Assembly: GCA_038062115.1 (NCBI GenBank)
Contig: JBBTXS010000023.1
Location: forward strand, 1-38,377
Direction of reading: 5' to 3'
DNA from: Patescibacteria group bacterium
GTDB taxonomy: Bacteria > Patescibacteriota > Microgenomatia > Levybacterales > UBA12049
Length of the DNA stretch: 38,377 nucleotides
Below, piece after piece: positions 1-33,253 of the stretch. A program made the position numbers and the translations under genes. The notes under the pieces were generated by a model. The model was not told the DNA's origin. It did not search any database and saw only the letters and a list, made by a program, of their open reading frames with translations. Within the stretch, counting starts at the first letter, position 1. Each line of letters begins with the position of its first letter.

Positions 1-336
1 ACTGCACTGACTCGTGCTATTCCTCCGAAGTCTGCTCTTTGTGTCCAGGTGTTTATGTTCGGATCATACCTCCAGAAATCTTTTTTATATGCACCATCCT
101 CTCCGTGTCCCGTACCAATATATCCTTTGCTCCCAATTCCAAAACCAACTGCATTGACTCGTGCTGTTCCTCCGAAGTCTGCTTTTTGTGTCCAGGCGTT
201 TATGTTCGGATCATACTCCCAGAAATCTTTTTTATATGCACCATCGTATCCCGTACCAATATATCCTTTGCTCCCAATTCCAAAACCAACTGCACTGACT
301 CGTGCTATTCCTCCGAAGTCTGCTCTTTGTGTCCAA
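1..336 (-). repeat. Tandem coding repeat (147/141-bp period) encoding Kelch blades
   Basis: ACTGCA(C/T)TGACTCGTGCT starts at 1, 148 and 289; encodes GFGIGSKGYIGTG..W.YDP...WTQ(K/R)ADFGG. Confidence 0.9.
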
Positions 337-881
337 GGTGGCGGAGTAGGAGTGGGTGTAGGGGTTGGAGTAGGAGTAGGGGTGGGGGTGGGTGGGTTTA
401 GTAAAAGCTGCGCTATTCCTACCGAGTCAACTATTATGTACCTAGTTTGGTTATATCCAGTCATAGCAATAGTTCCACCTCCACTAACGCCTCCAGTAAT
501 TACTGTAAAGAATAACTTTGTAACATTTGTATCTGGGTAAGGAGCAAATGTAATATTGTTTGGAAGAGTAGTAGTCTGAAGTGGATAAGAATTACCCGAA
601 CATACAACGTTTAAGGTATAGTTCGAACTTGCAATAGAAATCTCAACACTATAGCCATCTAGCTGATTTACGCAAACAGGTGGTTTTACCTGAGAATTAG
701 CTCGAGATTTTGCAAGCTGGATCGTAGTTACTAGCTCTTGAGTTGCCGCTTGCAGAGATTGCGACTGACTGTATGTTCTATACGACGCAATGCCAATTAT
801 AGATAAAAACGCAATGCTTGCAAAAACCACAATAAGCTCGATAAGGGTGAAGCCCTTTTTGATATTTGATATTTTGATCAT
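1..881 (-). CDS. Minor type IV pilin (FimT/GspH-like) fused via a Pro-Thr linker to Kelch repeats; 3' end lies outside the window
   Basis: Absent from the ORF track. Manual translation from ATG 881: MIKISNIKKG|FTLIELIVVFASIAFLSIIGIASY...NPPTPTPTPT...PPWTQRADFGGIARVSAVGFGIGSKGYIGTG...DFWEYDP; ATGA overlap with the upstream pilin stop. Confidence 0.9.
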   Translation of the reverse strand, partial: MIKISNIKKGFTLIELIVVFASIAFLSIIGIASYRTYSQSQSLQAATQELVTTIQLAKSRANSQVKPPVCVNQLDGYSVEISIASSNYTLNVVCSGNSYPLQTTTLPNNITFAPYPDTNVTKLFFTVITGGVSGGGTIAMTGYNQTRYIIVDSVGIAQLLLNPPTPTPTPTPTPTPTPTPPPWTQRADFGGIARVSAVGFGIGSKGYIGTGYDGAYKKDFWEYDPNINAWTQKADFGGTARVNAVGFGIGSKGYIGTGHGEDGAYKKDFWRYDPNINTWTQRADFGGIARVSA

Positions 882-1408
882 GGGTTTTTGAGAGTAAACG
901 ACCAATTATCATAAGGGGCTGTATCGTCGCACGGCGCAGTACTTGTTGTATCTTTCTGTGAATCACTAGTATTTTCTAAACAACCAATTAACTTATAAGT
1001 TCCAGCAGTAGGCGTGTATCTATAGTTAAACGGCACTGTATTTAATGGGTCGCAAGGAACACTCTGCATGTATACTGCTGCCCCATCTTGCCATGTTGTA
1101 CCGCACCCTGGTATTGAGGATGGATAAACACTTTTATCTGATCTATATATTTCAAGAGCTGCCTGAATGTTGCGAAGATCAGACTTTCTTTGCCCATCCC
1201 GCGCCCGACTCTTAACACCTACAAAATTTGCCACAAGAAATGTTGTTAGTATTCCGATTATTGCTATAACCACCAAAAGCTCAATTAGAGTAAACCCAGC
1301 ACCACTTGATCTACTAAGAGAGTAAGAATTAAATAGATAGTCCGTTTTTCTAGAATTACACAAGTGGTGCTGGGTAAATCCCTTTTTATAATTGAAAATT
1401 TTTTTCAT
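878..1408 (-). CDS. Type IV pilin / GspG-like pseudopilin with a 28-aa insertion in the leader
   Basis: GAG|FTLIELLVVIAIIGIL, ARDGQRKSDL..IQAALEIY, C-terminal Cys residues. Confidence 0.92.
   Translation of the reverse strand: MKKIFNYKKGFTQHHLCNSRKTDYLFNSYSLSRSSGAGFTLIELLVVIAIIGILTTFLVANFVGVKSRARDGQRKSDLRNIQAALEIYRSDKSVYPSSIPGCGTTWQDGAAVYMQSVPCDPLNTVPFNYRYTPTAGTYKLIGCLENTSDSQKDTTSTAPCDDTAPYDNWSFTLKNP
1295..1374. mobile_element. 80-bp MITE in a pilin leader (14-bp TIR, TAAA/TTTA duplication)
   Basis: TAAA(1291-1294) CCCAGCACCACTTG...CAAGTGGTGCTGGG TAAA(1375-1378). Confidence 0.9.
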
Positions 1409-1914
1409 GGCGTTACATTTCCACTTGACACTCCATAATTACAAACTCCTCCGCAAGCAGTATTGCTTAGTCCAATAAAACTTAGGCTAGAACACGCTTT
1501 TCCGCTATTGCAGGCTTGCGGATCTTCCTCTCTATCTAGATTACCATACATATAGTATGATTGTCCATCTATTTTTACATAGTAAATATAAGTTTTATTT
1601 TTGCTTGGATCTTTAGGCAAAATTTTAATATAAGGAGCAAAACTTTCCCCCCACTCAACAGTTCTTCCATCTAATCGAACAATTTTACAGTTATTAACGT
1701 CCTGTAAACAATCTCCAGGATTTGGCGGAAACTTCCCAAAATCCTCGTAATATTGTTTGATGGCTCTTTGAATTTGTGCAAGATCGGATTTCCTCTTGCT
1801 ATCATTTGCTTTTTGAATCTGTGTAATTGGATCGATTAAGATAACTGCTATTATTGTCGAAATCCCAATAATGCCGATGATAAGAATTTTGATAAGTGTG
1901 AAACCTTTTCTCAT
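1405..1914 (-). CDS. Type IV pilin / GspG-like protein (Lys instead of Glu at +5)
   Basis: Likely start ATG 1914 overlapping the pilD stop: MRKG|FTLIKILIIGIIG; KANDSKRKSDLAQIQRA; Cys-rich C-terminus. Confidence 0.85.
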   Translation of the reverse strand: MRKGFTLIKILIIGIIGISTIIAVILIDPITQIQKANDSKRKSDLAQIQRAIKQYYEDFGKFPPNPGDCLQDVNNCKIVRLDGRTVEWGESFAPYIKILPKDPSKNKTYIYYVKIDGQSYYMYGNLDREEDPQACNSGKACSSLSFIGLSNTACGGVCNYGVSSGNVTP

Positions 1915-2762
1915 CTTCCTTGCAATAAAAAAGGAAACACTTTTTGCAATATCACTTCTCCCCAAAATAATGCTATAAATGTTCCAATTACCAAAAATGG
2001 TCCAAAAGGTATTGTTGAACCTTTGAATTTTTTCTTCTTTCCCAAAATTAGTATTATAGAAATTACAGCGCCTGTCAAGAAAGCAACATATAAAGCAACT
2101 ACGGTTTTTGGAAAACCCAATATTAGTCCTATTAAAAATGCTAGCTTAACATCTCCAAAGCCCATGCCGCGTCCGCGAGTTGCTAAAAAAATTAAGAGAA
2201 AAAAGAGAAAAGACCCAAGAGCCGAAACGAGGGAAAGTATTAAGTAGTTAGTATTAAGTATTATGTATAAAATCGAAACTATAACTGCAGAATAAGTGAT
2301 TTTATCTGGAATAATTCCGTATTTTAGGTCAGCGAAAAAAACTACAATAAAGCTTGAGAAAATAAAAAGATAGAAAACCAACCCCAACGATTCACCTCCG
2401 AGGAGTCGCTCCGCCAAGTACCGTACGGTACCTGGCTCCGCAACACCTCGGAGGTGGAAAAAGGACTCCTCCGAGGCGAACGATTGCGTAAAAATAATTG
2501 CTGAAACAAACATTATTCCCGTTACAAGCTCCACTAGAGGATAGTAATACGAAAGGGGAACGCGGCAGTAGCGGCATCTAGCTTTTAATGAAATAAATGA
2601 TAAGAGGGGAATTAAGTCGTACCATCTAAGTGTTTTCTTGCAGGATTCACAATAAGATCTTCCGATGAGGAAAGATTCGTCTCTAGGCAGTCTGTCGATT
2701 AAAACATTTAAAAAACTTCCAACACCAACCCCTAGAACAAAGATTAGAAAAACTTCTACCAT
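1911..2762 (-). CDS. pilD: Prepilin peptidase (A24 family)
   Basis: GSFLNVLIDRLP, CxxC pairs, DLIPLLSF, FFADLKYGIIPD, GMGFGDVKL, IPFGPFL. Confidence 0.96.
   Translation of the reverse strand: MVEVFLIFVLGVGVGSFLNVLIDRLPRDESFLIGRSYCESCKKTLRWYDLIPLLSFISLKARCRYCRVPLSYYYPLVELVTGIMFVSAIIFTQSFASEESFFHLRGVAEPGTVRYLAERLLGGESLGLVFYLFIFSSFIVVFFADLKYGIIPDKITYSAVIVSILYIILNTNYLILSLVSALGSFLFFLLIFLATRGRGMGFGDVKLAFLIGLILGFPKTVVALYVAFLTGAVISIILILGKKKKFKGSTIPFGPFLVIGTFIALFWGEVILQKVFPFLLQGR
2391..2480. repeat. Family C palindrome, in-frame in pilD
   Basis: TTCACCTCCGAGGAGTC...ACACCTCGGAGGTG...GACTCCTCCGAGGCGAA; relatives at 17431 and 23647. Confidence 0.85.
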
Positions 2763-2780
2763 GTAAATAGAATAGCATAC

Positions 2781-3323
2781 TTACGGACACGTAGTTGCTC
2801 CTGCTGCGGGCGCGCTTGGAGATTCCTTGAATTTACTACTAGCAGAATCCCAACACCAAACAGCACCCGCGGGCGAATTATATAACTTTCCCCAAACCAC
2901 TGCCGAACAAGTTCCAGGATCACAAGTAGTGGAACGTTGATAATTATAATCTGTTCCATCTGGTTGCATGGGCAATGGATCTAGATCTTTGCTTACTACC
3001 AGATTTTGAAGAGGAGGACTGCTAACGTCTGGATATTTACCCTCATTTGTTGTAAGGTATGCTTTAAGAGCATGGACTATTTGACTCATATCTGTTTTAA
3101 CATTCGCCTCTTTTGCTTGATTAATATTTCTTAAAGGATTAACCGCTACAATAACCGCCATTGCCAAAATACCAATTATTACCATTACTACAAGAAGCTC
3201 AATAAGCGTAAACCCAGCACCACTTAAGTTTTTATTAATAGTATTGTCAAATAAATACATAAATATTTTTTTATTGAATAAGTGGCGCTGGATAAACCCT
3301 AATGTAGACAGTTTTATTTTCAT
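2781..3323 (-). CDS. Type IV pilin with a 28-aa insertion in the leader
   Basis: GAG|FTLIELLVVMVIIGILA..VAVNP; paralogous to 3842..4345. Confidence 0.92.
   Translation of the reverse strand: MKIKLSTLGFIQRHLFNKKIFMYLFDNTINKNLSGAGFTLIELLVVMVIIGILAMAVIVAVNPLRNINQAKEANVKTDMSQIVHALKAYLTTNEGKYPDVSSPPLQNLVVSKDLDPLPMQPDGTDYNYQRSTTCDPGTCSAVVWGKLYNSPAGAVWCWDSASSKFKESPSAPAAGATTCP
3213..3292. mobile_element. 80-bp MITE in a second pilin leader (TAAA/TTTA duplication)
   Basis: TAAA(3209-3212) CCCAGCACCACTTA...TAAGTGGCGCTGGA TAAA(3293-3296). Confidence 0.88.
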
Positions 3324-3381
3324 AACTCTAGTTCACAATTAGTACAACATAATTTATTATGCTTGTCAATATAAATAATAG

Positions 3382-3532
3382 CTGACATTACCCCAGTTTT
3401 GCCTCAAATTACTTATGTCATTGCGATCAGGCGAAGCCTGAGAAGCAATCTCTTTTTTCACAGTGGGATTGCCACGTCGTCCCGCTTCGCGGGACTCCTC
3501 GCAATGACAGGTACAAACTGGGGTAATGTCAG
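3382..3532. mobile_element. 151-bp MITE, 18-bp perfect TIR, 9-bp TSD, enclosing a family A palindrome (3416-3509)
   Basis: CTGACATTACCCCAGTTT...AAACTGGGGTAATGTCAG flanked by AAATAATAG at 3373-3381 and 3533-3541. Confidence 0.92.
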
Positions 3533-3540
3533 AAATAATA

Positions 3541-3640
3541 GTATATATTCAGTTCTTACCAATGAAGCTGTCATTTCGATCAGGCGAAGCCTGAAGCCTG
3601 ATCGCAATGACAATTCCTTTATCAAATCCTGAACGATTAC
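3541..3640. mobile_element. Degenerate MITE enclosing a shortened family A palindrome (3569-3612)
   Basis: Shares TATTCAGTTCTTACCAATGAAGCTGTCATTTCGA with the element at 15090; ends CTGAACGATTAC. Confidence 0.7.
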
Positions 3641-3683
3641 AAAATAAAAAAGAGGTGGGTGATTTTTATATTAATCTAGTAAA

Positions 3684-3782
3684 CCCCGCACCCCGAGCTT
3701 ACGCTCGGGGCATTAGGGGTTCGCTTCGCGGAAATAATCCATTCATCCCTGACCTTACGGTCAGGGCATTCTGGGTGCGGGG
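3684..3782. mobile_element. 99-bp intergenic MITE of the CCC..GGG/TAAA family with two internal hairpins
   Basis: TAAA CCCCGCACCC...GGGTGCGGGG TAAA; hairpins CCCCGAGCttacGCTCGGGG and CCCTGACCttacGGTCAGGG. Confidence 0.85.
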
Positions 3783-3841
3783 TAAAGCAATTGAGGACAA
3801 GATTTTTGATTAGCGAGGCTCATGGACACACACGATCGCTA

Positions 3842-4345
3842 CTAACATGTACTAGTTGCGAGTGTTGGTTGTGTAATAGTTGACTTTAACACACCATTCG
3901 TAGAATCCCAACAGAACCAAGTGGCAGCATACACATCAAAAAGATTACCCCACACTACTGCATTTGTGCCATTTGACCCATAACAATACTCAGCTGCCGC
4001 TCCTTGAGCCCCAGCAGGGTTTACAGAAGTACACGGTGTAGCTCCTGCCTGCTGTTTTGGCATGGTTTTGAGCTCCCCGGCAGTGAGAAGAACGATCAAT
4101 GTAGCAGGATAGGCAGGTGTCCCCGTTGTACCCGTTGAGGTGAAGTATATTTGCAGGGCATTTACAAGCTGACCCATGTCAGACTTAAGATTCGAATCTT
4201 TTGCTTGATTTATCTTCTTTACTGGATTGATAGCAACAATAATAGCTGCTGCTAAGATCCCTAAAACTGCAATGACTATTAACAATTCTATCAATGTGAA
4301 GGCTTTTTGGGGATTACTGAGTTTTAAATTAAAGAGTTTTTTCAT
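3842..4345 (-). CDS. Type IV pilin (candidate major pilin)
   Basis: QKA|FTLIELLIVIAVLGILAAAIIVAINP. Confidence 0.92.
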   Translation of the reverse strand: MKKLFNLKLSNPQKAFTLIELLIVIAVLGILAAAIIVAINPVKKINQAKDSNLKSDMGQLVNALQIYFTSTGTTGTPAYPATLIVLLTAGELKTMPKQQAGATPCTSVNPAGAQGAAAEYCYGSNGTNAVVWGNLFDVYAATWFCWDSTNGVLKSTITQPTLATSTC

Positions 4346-4463
4346 GTATAAAATAAATGATATATAATAAGTAAAACAGGGTTCTTAGAGTTTGTCAATA
4401 GATTAAAGTATATCAAAGTGCATAAAAAGCACAGGTTGTTAAATTAAATGAAACAATCGGTTT

Positions 4464-5672
4464 TTACTGAATCGAAGATGTGAGTTTGTAGATTGGAGTA
4501 ATTATCGAGAAAATTAAAAAACCCACTCCAACACCCAATGTAACCATAATAAGAGGTTCCATAGCTGTAGTTAGTGTTTTAACTGCCTGATCAATTTCGC
4601 CCTCAAAATACTCCGAAGCCTTAAGAAGTGTTTCGTCTAGTTTTCCAGTTTGTTCACCAACTTTTACAAGCTGAATAAGGATCGGAGGAAAAAGTGTATA
4701 AACAGACAAAGCGTCTCCAACAGTAACACCTTTCTCAACGCGCCTTGATGTATCTAATATTGCATTTTTAAAATGAACATTGCCAGCAATATCTGCCGTT
4801 TCTGCCAAAGACTCCACCACCAAGGTGCCGCTTCCTATTAAAAGCCCTAGAGTCCTTGAAAACTCAGCAAGTATTGTTTTTTTAATAATAGGAGCAAGAA
4901 TTGGGAGTTTTAAAACTAGGTTATCAATTAACATTTTACCCTCTTCGGTTTTACTCAAACGACGAAGTAAAAAAGAAAATAGAACTCCCGCGCCTAAAAT
5001 AATTGGCCAAAATGCAACAGTAAGGTGTGACATAGAAACCACTATTTTGGTAGCCAAGGGTAATTCAACGTTTAAGTCTTTATAAAGATCAGTAAGTTTT
5101 GGAATAACAAAAATCATCATTATAAAAACAACTACAATCATCATAATAACAACTATGGTCGGGTAGGTAAAAGCTGCCTTAATTGTGCCTCTTAATTTTT
5201 GCTCTTTTTCCAAGTTGTCTGCAAGGCGAATCAATGACTTATCCAAAAGTCCCGAGGCCTCCGAAGCCTTAATAATCGACACATAAACTGTAGAAAACAT
5301 ATCTGGATGCTTGAGAAGTGCCTTAGAAAAAGACAAACCCTCTTGTATATCGGTAATAACTCCATCTATTATCTCTCTCATTGCCTCGTTGGTAGCTTGA
5401 TTTTTAAGAATGTCTAAAGATTTGACTAGTGTCAGACCAGAAACTAGCATTAGAGACAGTTGCCTAGTAAAAACTAATATGTCTTTTCGTCTTACCTTAT
5501 TTGAAAAAAAGGGCAACATGCTAAGAAGTCTATTGTTTTCTTTTTTTGTTATTGTTATGGGGAAAAGCTCTTTGCTTCTTAAATAATATGCTGCATCTCT
5601 GATGTCGTTTGCTTCTATAATGCCAGACAATATTTTGCCCTCCCCTGTTACAGCTTTGTAAAATAACTTCAT
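4464..5672 (-). CDS. pilC: Type IV pilus platform protein PilC (GspF family)
   Basis: FTRQLSLML.SGL.L, YPTIV, GEQTGKLDE, EPLIM; 402 aa. Confidence 0.95.
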   Translation of the reverse strand: MKLFYKAVTGEGKILSGIIEANDIRDAAYYLRSKELFPITITKKENNRLLSMLPFFSNKVRRKDILVFTRQLSLMLVSGLTLVKSLDILKNQATNEAMREIIDGVITDIQEGLSFSKALLKHPDMFSTVYVSIIKASEASGLLDKSLIRLADNLEKEQKLRGTIKAAFTYPTIVVIMMIVVVFIMMIFVIPKLTDLYKDLNVELPLATKIVVSMSHLTVAFWPIILGAGVLFSFLLRRLSKTEEGKMLIDNLVLKLPILAPIIKKTILAEFSRTLGLLIGSGTLVVESLAETADIAGNVHFKNAILDTSRRVEKGVTVGDALSVYTLFPPILIQLVKVGEQTGKLDETLLKASEYFEGEIDQAVKTLTTAMEPLIMVTLGVGVGFLIFSIITPIYKLTSSIQ

Positions 5673-5683
5673 GTTAAATTTAA

Positions 5684-6751
5684 CTACCCTATCATTCTTA
5701 AAAGATAATCTTGGTGTAAAGCGTAGCTTTTAGCAGTCTCAAGGCTTATGCTACCTGCTAATACTAAAGAGGCGAGAGATGCCTCAAGAGTAATCATGCC
5801 AGCCTCCTGACTAGTTTGTATAACTGAATCTATTAAATGAGTTTTTCCTTCTCTAATGTTACTCGAAACCGCACTTGTTCCAATTAAAACCTCAACCGCT
5901 GGAATTCTGCCGCCCCCTATCTGTTGCAAAAGTCGTTGTGAAATAATACCCTTAAGAGTTGAGGCAAGTTGAATTTTGATTTGTGGTTGTTGCTCCGACG
6001 GAAAGGAATCTATAATTCTGTCTATGCTTTGTGAAGCAGAATTTGTATGAATTGTCGAAAAAACTAAATGCCCAGTTTCGGCAATTGTTATTGCTGCAGC
6101 CATAGTTTCTGGATCTCGCATTTCTCCAACTAGTACTACATCTGGGTCTTCACGAAGACAAGATTTAAGAGCCGAATGCCACGAATGGGTATCTATGCCC
6201 ATGGCTCGCTGAGATATGACACTTTTCCCAGGAGGATAAACATATTCAATCGGATCTTCTATTGTTAAGATATGACAGGAACGACTCAGATTAATCTCAT
6301 TTATAATTGCAGCAAGGGTTGTTGATTTACCGTGTCCTGTGGGGCCTGTTGCTAAAATAAAACCTTGTTTTAAATTCGCAAACCTATGAACAGTTTTGGG
6401 CAAGTGGAGATCTTCGATTGTACGAATGCTTGGCTCCAAAAATCTAAAAGCGCCCGATAAATATCCCCGTTGATAATAAAGATTAGAGCGAAACCTACCT
6501 AAATTTTTGCTGCTTCCGCCTTCGAATGTAAAGGAAAAATCTAGCTCCTTGTTAGCAAGCAACATCTCCTTCTGCGACGAATTAAGCAAAGAAAAAATCA
6601 TTGTTTCTATATCTTGTACAGTTAAAGGTTTATAGCTTGAAATATATGCTAGGGAACCATCAATTCTAACGGTTGGTGGAATACCTTGCAACAAATGCAA
6701 GTCGGATGCGTTGTTCTTTATAGTAACTGCTAATAATTCTTGAATGCTCAT
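5684..6751 (-). CDS. pilT: Retraction ATPase PilT
   Basis: ASDLHL, GPTGHGKSTT, TIEDPIEY, LREDPDVVLVGEMRD, AETGHLVFSTIHT, SNIREGK. Confidence 0.95.
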   Translation of the reverse strand: MSIQELLAVTIKNNASDLHLLQGIPPTVRIDGSLAYISSYKPLTVQDIETMIFSLLNSSQKEMLLANKELDFSFTFEGGSSKNLGRFRSNLYYQRGYLSGAFRFLEPSIRTIEDLHLPKTVHRFANLKQGFILATGPTGHGKSTTLAAIINEINLSRSCHILTIEDPIEYVYPPGKSVISQRAMGIDTHSWHSALKSCLREDPDVVLVGEMRDPETMAAAITIAETGHLVFSTIHTNSASQSIDRIIDSFPSEQQPQIKIQLASTLKGIISQRLLQQIGGGRIPAVEVLIGTSAVSSNIREGKTHLIDSVIQTSQEAGMITLEASLASLVLAGSISLETAKSYALHQDYLLRMIG

Positions 6752-6754
6752 ACG

Positions 6755-8494
6755 CTACTCCTGCGCTACTCTTATCACTTCTTCTATCGTCGTTATGCCT
6801 TGCAATGCCTTAAAATAACCATCTTGCTTCATTGTAATCATTCCATCCGTAATTGCTTCTTTTTCTAATGTCGCCGCATCCGGATGCTCTAATATTAGGC
6901 TAGCAATTTTATTAGAAACAGGCAATACCTCAAAAATTCCAATTCTTCCCAAATATCCAAGATTGCCGCATTCTTCACAACCTTTACCTCTATATAATTT
7001 TATTGTAGAATTACTTGGAAAAAGCTTGCCTAATACTTTTTGCATCTCCTCTATAATCTGTGGAACTGGAACATAAGATTCTTTACAATGTAGACAAATT
7101 CTTCTAACTATTCGTTGCCCCAACATTGCATTCATTGTGGATGAAAGCAAAAAGGGTTCTGCTCCCAAATCGATAAGACGAGGTAAGGCACCAGCAGCGC
7201 TTGATGTATGAAGTGTAGAAAAAACCAAATGTCCAGTTAGTGCCGCCTGCAAAGCAAGATCTGTTGTGTCTCTATCTCGAATTTCTCCAACTAGAATTAT
7301 GTTTGGGTCTTGTCGAAGAAATGAGCGAAGACCCGTTGCAAAAGTAAGCCCAACTGCTGGATTTATGCCAACCTGATTAATTCCAGGCAACTGATATTCA
7401 ACTGGGTCCTCAAGAGTCATAATATTTACACGAGTTGTATTAAGTTTTGACAAAATGGAATAAAGAGTTGTTGTTTTACCCGATCCAGTTGGTCCGCAAA
7501 CTATAATAATTCCATGCGGTCTTAACACCGCTGTTTCCAGATTTTTTAAAGATACTCCACCAAGCCCCAACTCTTCTAGCCCGGGAACACCACCAGTTTT
7601 CCTTAAAAGCCTCATCACGATTTTTTCGCCATGAACTGTTGGCAATACCGAAATACGAAGATCAACTTCTCTATCCATAATTTTAAAATTAAAACGACCA
7701 TCTTGGGGAATACGATGCTCGTCAATCTTCATTTCGGAAAGAATTTTTATTCTAGAGACTACTGCATCATGAACTCTCTTAGGAAGACTCAGCTTGTCGT
7801 AGAGTATACCATCTATTCTATATCTAACTCTTATCCTATCTTCTTCGGGTTCTATATGAACATCAGAGGCCCTACTTGTTACCGCATATTCTAAAATAGT
7901 TGAAACTATTTTGGCAACAGGTGCTTCTTTAATAATTTCTGGTATTTGGTTTATGCTAACCGTACGAACTCTCTTGCCAATTTCGTCTGACTCCTTTAAG
8001 GCTTTTCCCACCTCACCAATTATGTCTTGTTTGTATTCTTGATTAATTGCACGAGTTATATCTTGAGGGGATGAAACAAATGTTGCTATATTAAGTCCAG
8101 TTTTTTGCCTAACAAATTGCAACGCGTCCAGATCTACTGGATTGCTCATAGCAACAGATAATGTTTTTGTTTTTTCATCAAAGTTAAATGGTATTAGAGA
8201 AAAACGCTCAGCAATAACCCTTGGCACAAAACCTATAGCCTGTGGAGAAAACGAAGCCGATGCAAGAGAAATAAAAGGTATCCCCAGAAGCTTTGCTTTT
8301 GCCGCGAGAAGCTTTTCATCTGTTATCAAGTTTAACGATTTTAATATTTCCTCGTAGGATAATCCCTGAGTTGCACTTTTAAGTTTAATATCCTCGAATT
8401 GTTCCGGGGTCAAGAGATGCTCCGAAAGCAATATATCAAGCAAAGTTTTATTTTCTGAATTTTCTGATGATAGATTAAGACCGGTTATTAGCAT
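6755..8494 (-). CDS. pilB: Assembly ATPase PilB (GspE family)
   Basis: ASDVHIEP, RIPQDGR, GPTGSGKTTT, LRQDPNIILVGEIRD, tetracysteine motif. Confidence 0.95.
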   Translation of the reverse strand: MLITGLNLSSENSENKTLLDILLSEHLLTPEQFEDIKLKSATQGLSYEEILKSLNLITDEKLLAAKAKLLGIPFISLASASFSPQAIGFVPRVIAERFSLIPFNFDEKTKTLSVAMSNPVDLDALQFVRQKTGLNIATFVSSPQDITRAINQEYKQDIIGEVGKALKESDEIGKRVRTVSINQIPEIIKEAPVAKIVSTILEYAVTSRASDVHIEPEEDRIRVRYRIDGILYDKLSLPKRVHDAVVSRIKILSEMKIDEHRIPQDGRFNFKIMDREVDLRISVLPTVHGEKIVMRLLRKTGGVPGLEELGLGGVSLKNLETAVLRPHGIIIVCGPTGSGKTTTLYSILSKLNTTRVNIMTLEDPVEYQLPGINQVGINPAVGLTFATGLRSFLRQDPNIILVGEIRDRDTTDLALQAALTGHLVFSTLHTSSAAGALPRLIDLGAEPFLLSSTMNAMLGQRIVRRICLHCKESYVPVPQIIEEMQKVLGKLFPSNSTIKLYRGKGCEECGNLGYLGRIGIFEVLPVSNKIASLILEHPDAATLEKEAITDGMITMKQDGYFKALQGITTIEEVIRVAQE

Positions 8495-24263: not shown

Positions 24264-24351
24264 TGTCATTGCGAGGGAGTGAAGCGACCGAAGCAATCTC
24301 TCTCTATAAAACTGAGATTGCCACGCGAACTAAAGTTCGCTCGCAATGACA
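24264..24351. repeat. Family A palindrome in the pyrB leader
   Basis: TGTCATTGCGAG..GAAGCAATCTC..GAGATTGCCAC..CTCGCAATGACA. Confidence 0.92.
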
Positions 24352-32704: not shown

Positions 32705-33253
32705 TTAGGCGATTTCCGCAGCTTGTTGCTGCGGGGAGATCGACGTAGGAGTTTTGTAAATTGGACTTACGGAGACTATTAATCTGTATCCTAAACCATG
32801 TACTGAAAGAATAATACTACGCTTTGTGTCTGTATTTGACCCGAGTTTACCTCGCAATTTCTGCACATATTTCTTTACCAAATCATTTTTTGTGCCATCG
32901 CTCACCCCCCATATCCTTTTAACAATAGTCTTTTTACTTACAGTCCTACGTGCGTTTTTAACTAATAAATTAAAAAGTTCATTTTCTGTCCGAGTTAACC
33001 GTACGTTTCTAACGCTTTTATCAAGCTCTACTGAATCAAAACATTGATCCTCAGGATAGTAAACAAATCGACCTTGAGCAATACTATACGCAATTGGCGT
33101 AGGAAGGATATCATTATTTTCTACTGGAGGAGGATCCTCAAAACCCTCTTCTTTTAAACAATCAACATACCCCTTTAGCCTTTCCGCAAAGTTTTTTTGT
33201 TTTGAGCCGCTGGGGGCAATATCGCCTATATATCTAATTGCTTTTTCAAGCAT
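32705..33253 (-). CDS. OmpR/PhoB-type winged-helix protein without a receiver domain
   Basis: VRLTRTENELFNLL..NARRTVSK..I...IWG...LVKKYVQKLRGKL...ILSVHGLGY. Confidence 0.85.
   Translation of the reverse strand: MLEKAIRYIGDIAPSGSKQKNFAERLKGYVDCLKEEGFEDPPPVENNDILPTPIAYSIAQGRFVYYPEDQCFDSVELDKSVRNVRLTRTENELFNLLVKNARRTVSKKTIVKRIWGVSDGTKNDLVKKYVQKLRGKLGSNTDTKRSIILSVHGLGYRLIVSVSPIYKTPTSISPQQQAAEIA

Follow-up and report, generated by a model that had tools for sequence, protein, structure and literature searches.

The stretch analysed here (the window) is the whole 38,377-nt contig JBBTXS010000023.1 (contig C23) of a Patescibacteria group bacterium, assembly GCA_038062115.1 (genome G000; 1.04 Mb, 35.9% G+C). 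A type IV pilus cluster on the minus strand, with several pilins and a PilD-type prepilin peptidase, makes up its first 8.5 kb. Two of the pilin genes carry an 80-nt hairpin element in their leaders. These elements belong to a widespread, apparently undescribed family that is linked to a small GIY-YIG nuclease and sits at the prepilin cleavage site. An earlier note on the window had described the insertion in the second pilin gene; the link to the nuclease and the wide spread across bacteria of the Candidate Phyla Radiation (CPR) go beyond it. The features of the two invaded genes and of their close neighbours are listed below, with a slash marking the cleavage site in translated sequences.

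2781..3323, minus strand: type IV pilin/pseudopilin gene 2, whose N-terminal methylation motif lies at residues 36-57, not near the start
3293..3296, minus strand: upstream flank TTTA (gene sense), the old Phe codon and the first base of the next codon
3280..3292, minus strand: leader-proximal arm TCCAGCGCCACTT, with two mismatches to the family consensus, both G.U/G.T pairs on the sense strand
3226..3279, minus strand: interior of 54 nt, A+T-rich, open in the pilin frame and with an in-frame ATG (MYLFDNTINKNLSGAG)
3213..3225, minus strand: pilin-proximal arm AAGTGGTGCTGGG, read as (N)-S-G-A-G, which supplies the new Gly(-1)
3209..3212, minus strand: downstream flank TTTA, the Phe(+1) codon and the first base of Thr(+2) of the mature pilin
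878..1408, minus strand: pilin gene 1, which reads MKKIFNYKKGFTQHHLCNSRKTDYLFNSYSLSRSSGAG/FTLIELL
1291..1378, minus strand: copy 1, TTTA, an 80-nt element with perfect arms and TTTA, in the leader of pilin gene 1
1911..2762, minus strand: prepilin peptidase (PilD-type, Peptidase_A24; A24_N_bact E 1.5e-30, Peptidase_A24 E 1.7e-15)
3842..4345, minus strand: nearest paralog of pilin 2 (36% identity), whose short leader, MKKLFNLKLSNPQKA/FTLIELL, is of the ordinary kind and holds no element

On the plus strand, copy 2 runs from TAAA (3209-3212) through the arm CCCAGCACCACTT (3213-3225), a 54-nt interior (3226-3279) and the arm AAGTGGCGCTGGA (3280-3292) to a second TAAA (3293-3296). Both window elements are 80 nt long and add 84 nt, and the frame is open through copy 2: the open reading frame (ORF) at 2781..3323 on the minus strand is translated as MKIKLSTLGFIQRHLFNKKIFMYLFDNTINKNLSGAG, followed after the cleavage site by FTLIELLVV. 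The GGG (Gly) codon of the old leader, MKIKLSTLG, directly precedes the upstream TTTA. Copy 1 is a perfect 15-nt inverted repeat. The pilin-proximal arm of copy 2 is identical to both arms of copy 1 and encodes SGAG before F-T-L-I-E-L-L, while the leader-proximal arm is mismatched at 2 of 13 positions (over 14 nt, three mismatches as against one in the pilin-proximal arm). Compared without gaps, the two interiors are identical at 23 of 54 positions, no more than their composition would give (shuffle mean 17.7, P = 0.066), save for the block TAT-YTA-TTT (Y-L-F) that both contain 13 codons past the old Phe. The earlier note had claimed 80 bp plus TTTA in the second pilin leader, an intact end encoding SGAG with two mismatches at the other end, an interior diverged from the first copy except for YLF at the same offset, and an uninvaded paralog at 3842..4345; coordinates and anatomy are as it described. 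With up to three mismatches allowed, the arm 14-mer has six matches in the window against 1.22 expected, a number reached in none of 100 shuffles.

The proteins themselves are recognisable type IV pilins, with N_methyl E-values of 7.8e-7 and 4.3e-7, TIGR02532 above cutoff and the G/F-T-L-I-E motif. Type IV prepilin leaders are usually shorter than 30 residues. The leaders of the two window pilins have 37 and 38 residues, and that of a fusion protein on contig C8 of the same genome has 129. The peptidase gene is located between the two invaded pilin genes.

On either strand, copies 1 and 2 form a stem of 15 bp. The sense-strand folds of copies 2 and 1 reach -29.2 and -32.0 kcal/mol (z of -5.4 and -5.1), and none of 200 shuffles folds as well. 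In copy 2 the antisense fold reaches -21.5 kcal/mol; the differences between its arms form G.U pairs on the sense strand and A.C mismatches on the antisense strand. Across 96 elements, a set that may double-count two elements of genome G012 whose identical arms also occur in named records, the arms contain 7 compensated pairs, and 17 sense G.T against 9 A.C mismatches (P = 0.17), which is suggestive of substitutions that favour pairing but is without significance.

The evidence for insertion comes from orthologous genes without the element. A metagenome scan with the mature part of pilin 2 gave two close orthologs, L305 (92% amino acid identity) and L306 (78%). Over some 1.8 kb L305 keeps synteny with the window, its DNA being 80-87% identical there. 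Its pilin 2 ortholog has the short leader MRKKLQVVNIKG/FTLIELL with no element, and its pilin 1 ortholog, with the leader MMEIKKSG/FTLIELL, is likewise an empty site. In L306, the leader MKIKLLTSG runs uninterrupted straight into TTTACG (/FTLVELL), and 25 positions of its first 31 bases match the window sequence from ATG to TTTA, counted by eye. Empty orthologous sites thus exist for both window pilins in L305 and for pilin 2 in L306. Since both L305 orthologs are uninvaded, the two insertions are separate events that arose, or were kept, after the split from the L305 lineage. On the evidence of these alignments, the 84 nt of pilin 2 is a recent insertion. Among 40 related genomes, the best relatives of pilin 2 are 38-42% identical, too distant for the orthologous site to be judged.

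A third copy in the host genome lies in the leader of a pilin on contig C6. Its interior is identical to that of copy 2 at 52 of 54 positions, and the two elements differ at 3 of 88 positions, with flank identity collapsing at the TTTA borders. The bodies of pilin 2 and the C6 pilin align over the N-terminal 49 residues only. Insert and pilin body have different histories: the C6 element is near-identical, the bodies are unrelated and the closest paralog is uninvaded. The earlier note had proposed an independent insertion or a conversion between pilin leaders, had suggested comparing the histories of inserts and bodies, and had set against it the descent of both pilins from one invaded ancestor. 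The empty sites in L305 and L306 support the independent insertion, the two histories disagree, and the single invaded ancestor does not hold, since the L305 orthologs have short leaders without the element.

The organism's own population was followed in assembled contigs of four metagenome DNA runs (12 runs were found). Independent contigs from these four runs, which belong to two studies, span copy 1 with no differences and cover both junctions of copy 2, breaking only within its repeated interior at 3248-3275. No contig in the four runs joins across either window element or shows a strand change. Two joints, 1307->1358 and 1307->1362 (6-12 extra letters, with sides of 21-23 nt), are read as other mini-elements of the community rather than as excision products.

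Within the host genome, all arms with at most one mismatch are found in four pilin leaders, among 13 pilin-like ORFs. The remaining 9 of the 13 are without the element, as are most pilins of the relatives. Exact arm pairs occur in 2 of 61 related genomes and in 3 of 401 genomes sampled from the class, the host genome being included in both counts. All ten elements from these genome scans, in which no flank was required, are located at prepilin cleavage sites. Scans of public data for an exact arm with a TTTA flank gave 105 and at least 118 stretches, mostly from CPR genomes. From the exact arm + TTTA(C) scans, 89 distinct elements adjoining a pilin N-terminus were taken among the matches listed, and the counts out of 89 and of 52 given below have this scope. 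Their lengths cluster at 35-46, 65-83, 98-108, 132 and 270-310 nt. Identical arms are found in pilins of at least five CPR phyla whose bodies cannot be aligned. A full-text literature search returned no description of nuclease or hairpin insertions in pilin leaders; PMC13278184 deals with a different pilus.

Some records hold related arrangements. In L023, a Komeilibacteria record that includes masked bases in this stretch, four tandem pilin-proximal arms at 975-1135, each followed by TTTAC (ARKSGAGFTLLARKSGAGFTL), precede a single pilin and form an array of partial elements. A pilin of genome G002 (L111) has a 50-residue leader that ends in LSGAG and contains YAPSFAKATEGKKASEDK, with no exact leader-proximal arm; this leader may hold a decayed or a different element.

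Gly-Phe codons stand to the left of the element in 70 of the 89, and a recognisable orphan leader of the form M..GF, such as MKTNKKGF or MEKSRGF, in 39. The two flanks are equal in 59, with TTTA/TTTA in 57 and TTCA/TTCA in 2, the others being mixed; at the two TTCA/TTCA loci the Phe codon is TTC. A CAAA/CAAA pair flanks one nuclease-bearing element (L035), whose target is a membrane protein other than a pilin. The pilin frame is open through 74 of the 89 elements, against 26 and 31 in the control frames, and through 37 of the 52 elements of at least 60 nt, against 4 and 2; in a separate, smaller set it is open in 25 of 26. In elements that are not open, a leader-like peptide with SGAG at its end follows an internal ATG. 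The selection on frame that the earlier note proposed is supported by these counts.

The earlier note had also proposed selection on the end that supplies Gly(-1), with asymmetric conservation of the two arms. All eight variant pilin-proximal arms retain a GGN codon at position -1. The asymmetry of decay is weak: the pilin-proximal arm is perfect in 47 of 56 elements (84%) anchored by a perfect leader-proximal arm, and the converse holds in 53 of 72 (74%; Fisher P = 0.20).

The long form of the family has the same arms bounding a unit of 270-324 nt that encodes a small GIY-YIG nuclease. It too lies at the prepilin cleavage site, save for the one nuclease element in a different membrane protein. 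In the host genome, an arm, a GIY-YIG ORF of 95 codons with its ATG, a degenerate arm, TTTA and a second element of 102 nt stand in this order before the contig C8 pilin; the nuclease, the elements and the pilin all share one open frame. In genome G209, the order is the old leader MPKKGF, an arm, the full nuclease ORF, a 39-nt mini-hairpin and the pilin. Complete mini-hairpins of 35-46 nt lie downstream of the nuclease gene in several loci. A 132-nt element of genome G012 (L005/L284) and a 76-nt element (L235) retain nothing of the nuclease ORF but its first and last codons and are clear internal-deletion derivatives.

The arms are associated with one clade of these nucleases. Among the best 80 public relatives, arms are found near all 11 of the closest nuclease homologs and near none of the other 69. 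In a quick tree, the 13 arm-linked nucleases all fall on one side of a branch that has a support of 95 in the Shimodaira-Hasegawa-like approximate likelihood ratio test (SH-aLRT), and their hosts belong to at least five CPR phyla (Levyi-, Saccharimonad-, Buchananii-, Minisyncocc- and Komeiliibacteriota). The nuclease has the same orientation as the pilin in all 13 loci. In nine of them, no stop codon interrupts its ORF, which continues past the pilin-proximal arm (..KSGAG) and into FT..E. or a different N-terminal membrane helix; in the remaining four, the nuclease ORF has a stop at its end and the pilin restarts within the following element. Public fusion ORFs contain PF01541 in 46 of 51 matches, and 16 of those 46 also have pilin Pfam domains. 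In an alignment of 39 fusion ORFs, the nuclease is conserved and GAG/FT..E is nearly invariant, while the pilin bodies cannot be aligned.

The nuclease domain has invariant catalytic-type residues at Tyr, Arg, His, Glu and Asn positions, and the Pfam GIY-YIG domain matches residues 1-70 (E 3.1e-16). In the AlphaFold2 model, a GIY-YIG fold of about 80 residues (predicted local distance difference test, pLDDT, 95-98) is followed by a disordered linker at residues 84-129 and then by the pilin helix and beta domain. The structural neighbours of the nuclease found by Foldseek are UPF0213, HIGLE, Slx1 and I-TevI (1ln0); among solved proteins, those nearest to it in sequence are 1zg2 (E 8.9e-4) and 1ywl, both of UPF0213.

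The closest described system is Ssn/SRM, the single-strand GIY-YIG nucleases of cd10448 and their repeats. According to PMC11893778, Ssn genes lie between their own hairpin-forming repeats, an arrangement that its authors term identical to an insertion sequence; in single-stranded DNA, each Ssn nuclease binds the hairpin cognate to it and makes its cut alongside; and the NTS repeats are rarely inside genes (2%). The pilin-leader family resembles this system in having a small single-domain GIY-YIG protein of about 100 amino acids, though one often extended by fusion to a pilin, in a gene flanked by its own hairpin-forming repeats of 20-50 nt with many short hairpin copies elsewhere. It differs in that its hairpins are inside coding sequence, in frame and at one codon position of one gene family, and in that the nuclease at the pilin site is often fused to the target protein. 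Further, GTCATT[CG]C, the core expression and not the full degenerate SRM, is found near none of 11 arm-linked loci, where the arms are CCCAGCACCACTT / AAGTGGTGCTGGG, and the arm-linked clade is far from the NTS-flanked paralogs of the host genome in the quick tree.

Hairpins of the classical NTS-like kind are also present in the host genome, as 24 exact copies that flank other GIY-YIG paralogs. There are five further small GIY-YIG paralogs (C8:46258, C16:2542, C16:16461, C7:39078-39200 and C12:90505), three of which are flanked by GTCATT-type hairpins. The gene at C8:46258 is flanked by GTCATTCCCGCGAAAGCGGGAATC hairpins, the C7 gene is itself interrupted by a hairpin of the GTCATT type, and the gene at C12:90505 lies between two tRNA-like sequences. 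On contig C9, at about 32830-32941 on the plus strand, the NTS-like hairpin GTCATTCCCGCGAAAGCGGGAATC stands in frame in a pilin leader that reads MIKIHSLKPFVSFPRKRESSPRSSRGSIKSRMTSG/FSLVELIL, so that a second hairpin family also lodges in a pilin leader. In the window, nested hairpin repeats of the GTCATTGCGA type, which resemble NTS/SRM, occupy the spacer between pilin genes at 3375-3640 and recur at 24264-24351; the contig depth at these repeats is 10-20 times that of their flanks in the four metagenome runs, as expected of a multi-copy repeat.

Several other kinds of element share part of this arrangement. The REP/BIME-RAYT and IS200/IS605 'peel and paste' systems, also discussed in PMC11893778, resemble the pilin elements in that the gene of a hairpin-recognising nuclease is flanked by its hairpins, insertion is beside a short fixed tetranucleotide (TTAC in IS608) and precise loss is possible; their enzymes, however, are HUH/Y1 transposases rather than GIY-YIG proteins, and their repeats are extragenic. 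Miniature inverted-repeat transposable elements (MITEs), such as the Correia elements of Neisseria, have terminal inverted repeats, a short flanking repeat, many copies and an origin by internal deletion. The pilin elements are like them in length (36-130 nt), in copy number, in their terminal inverted repeats of 13-15 nt (exact in the 53 of 72 and 47 of 56 anchored elements above), and in having a longer partner with the same ends (270-324 nt) together with deletion derivatives (132 and 76 nt). They differ in that the sole ORF of the presumed autonomous partner is a GIY-YIG nuclease and not a DDE transposase or other known transposase, and in their strict targeting of a coding motif. Rickettsia palindromic elements (Ogata et al. 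2000) are reportedly short palindromic mobile elements that lie in frame in coding genes and are translated with the host protein. These are found in many unrelated genes and stay in the mature protein, whereas the pilin elements are found at one motif and in the part that is cut off. A further comparison is with homing endonuclease genes, group I introns and inteins, among them those with the GIY-YIG enzyme I-TevI: these are nuclease-linked and selfish, occupy a highly conserved site of a conserved gene and leave no effect on the product once it has been expressed. Introns and inteins splice themselves, whereas removal of the pilin elements would fall to a host peptidase, and the pilin elements have inverted arms and short deletion derivatives. 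An Rfam search of the window, L016, L029 and L013 at gathering thresholds gave no matches and hence no group I intron. A Pfam scan gave no intein domain.

Taken together, these features probably reflect a hairpin-ended, GIY-YIG-linked family of the Ssn/SRM kind that targets Gly-Phe-Thr codons and that the prepilin peptidase removes again from the protein. The 84 nt of the window pilins would be a short, non-autonomous, MITE-like member, and the long form with the gene for a single-domain GIY-YIG nuclease its presumed partner. The target is the GGN-TTT-AC(N) codons for Gly-1, Phe+1 and Thr+2 in prepilin genes of CPR/Patescibacteria, with TTTA on both sides of the inserted element. Since the arms complement each other, the one next to the pilin always reads S-G-A-G, which puts a new Gly(-1) immediately ahead of the original Phe(+1). 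Translation would yield one long leader made up of the old leader, the element and SGAG, or it would start at an ATG within the element. PilD requires Gly at position -1 and cuts on the cytoplasmic face. The neighbouring PilD-type peptidase would then cut at G/F, leaving the mature pilin as it was. The nuclease of the long form would either be synthesised as an N-terminal portion of the prepilin or be tied to it by translational coupling, and the same cleavage would set it free. By analogy with the Ssn nucleases, it would mobilise the hairpins, probably by recognising the folded arms in single-stranded DNA and cutting beside them; insertion may then proceed either with a 4-bp duplication or by placing an element-borne TTTA after the target TTTA. 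The sequence comparisons show the insertion, the empty sites, the family with its tie to a single GIY-YIG clade, the target site and the frame bias; the roles given to PilD and to the nuclease, and the chemistry of insertion, are inferred. The full version of this proposal, a selfish hairpin element that is driven by the GIY-YIG protein, homes to the codons of the prepilin cleavage site and is erased by the peptidase, with the nuclease as a PilD-released domain, is tentative and falls somewhat short of probable.

Several points weigh against this proposal. This GIY-YIG clade is not known to transpose or to home, and its fold is not known from any transposase family; the nuclease could be a passenger. 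When the two window interiors are aligned locally with the nuclease element of the host genome, 22 of 300 and 115 of 300 shuffles score as high, so that derivation of these interiors from the nuclease gene is unsupported. PilD would have to cleave leaders of 37 to 130 residues, and for 15 of the 52 longer elements, whose frame is closed, translation must depend on an internal start. The flanking tetranucleotides are equal in just the 59 elements given above, which does not separate a duplication from an element-borne TTTA of the IS200/IS605 type. Gathering by exact arms and TTTA(C) favours pilin contexts, and the members are related, so that the P values overstate significance. The assembly contigs of the four runs contain no excised, circular or empty form. 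Among viral contigs, no stretch has both arms, and no vector for the spread between phyla was identified; four viral-contig matches to the pilin-proximal arm with TTTAC lie in unrelated ORFs, where the other arm is missing.

The stem on the mRNA would suggest a different role: in CPR pilin genes, the inverted repeat might serve above all as a cis-regulatory hairpin, conserved because base pairing between the 5' region and the SGAG codons controls translation or stability. The continuous 15-bp sense stems with their low folding energies, the G.U pairs of copy 2 on the sense strand, the compensated pairs and sense G.T excess across the family, and the many 98-108 nt elements that enclose an internal ATG and a leader-like peptide in the stem are all as such a hairpin would have them. 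However, that excess is not significant, the orthologs in L305 and L306 and 9 of the 13 pilins of the host genome do without a hairpin, and regulation does not account for the orphaned old leaders and duplicated Gly-Phe codons, the near-identical copy in an unrelated pilin, or the nuclease-carrying and deletion forms. A mainly regulatory role is accordingly unlikely, while an effect of the hairpin on expression as a by-product is compatible with mobility. An equally doubtful possibility is that the nuclease-pilin is a domesticated Ssn-like unit, which couples pilus or DNA-uptake biogenesis to the processing of incoming DNA and for which the short hairpins are recognition sites. The strong conservation of the nuclease, its in-frame continuation into the pilin in nine of 13 loci and the 46 public fusion ORFs would fit this, and Neisseria Ssn modulates natural transformation according to PMC11893778. 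Yet the pilin partners are unrelated to one another, occurrence among relatives is patchy, no co-conserved partner genes were seen, and the deletion derivatives and empty sites point to selfish spread.

The inverted arms could also belong to an invertible ON/OFF switch for phase variation, and inverting the interior does put stop codons into the pilin frame in all four elements of the host genome. This is very improbable, as no contig of the four runs has the strand changed at either element, no inverted copy was found anywhere, the nuclease keeps its orientation relative to the pilin in every locus, no recombinase gene was identified beside the elements among the ORFs of 1-8000, and the empty orthologous sites are left unexplained. 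That the long leaders are an old trait inherited in one pilin lineage, by descent from a single invaded ancestor or by gene conversion only and with no ongoing mobility, might be suggested by the equal length and the common Y-L-F block of the two window elements. The uninvaded L305 orthologs of both pilins already contradict it, the closest paralog is also uninvaded, and identical arms are found in at least five CPR phyla in pilins with unalignable bodies; it is hardly credible. The mobile, nuclease-linked family remains the preferred reading.

The rest of the pilus cluster and a further repeat in it complete the description of the locus.

4464..5672, minus strand: PilC-like ORF, judged by eye
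5684..6751, minus strand: PilT-like ORF, judged by eye
6755..8494, minus strand: PilB-like ORF, judged by eye

A long pilin-like ORF at 3-905 on the minus strand reads MIKISNIKKG/FTLIELIVV and contains a (TP)n linker; the tandem repeats YKKDFWEYDPNINAWTQKADFGG in its C-terminal part continue past the edge of the window. The prepilin peptidase gene contains, at 2393-2456 on the minus strand, an in-frame 64-nt palindrome of another repeat family. Its arm, CACCTCCGAGGAG, has 3 exact and 16 one-mismatch matches in the host genome. The palindrome sits between the two Pfam domains of the peptidase; L305 cannot be aligned there and is about 51 nt shorter.

The CPR are ultra-small bacteria that are thought to use pili for attachment and DNA uptake. 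If the proposal holds, the pilin elements would be functionally comparable to inteins and introns but make use of the host's own signal-type peptidase, and would represent a third route, besides RNA splicing and protein splicing, to harmless residence in coding sequence of an essential type. The small GIY-YIG hairpin nucleases would gain a testable case of mobility with a defined donor, target and empty sites. The oddly long pilin leaders in CPR annotations, and the 'GIY-YIG nuclease family' proteins with pilin tails, would be explained. The exact 13-nt arms common to several CPR phyla are a marker of gene flow among them.

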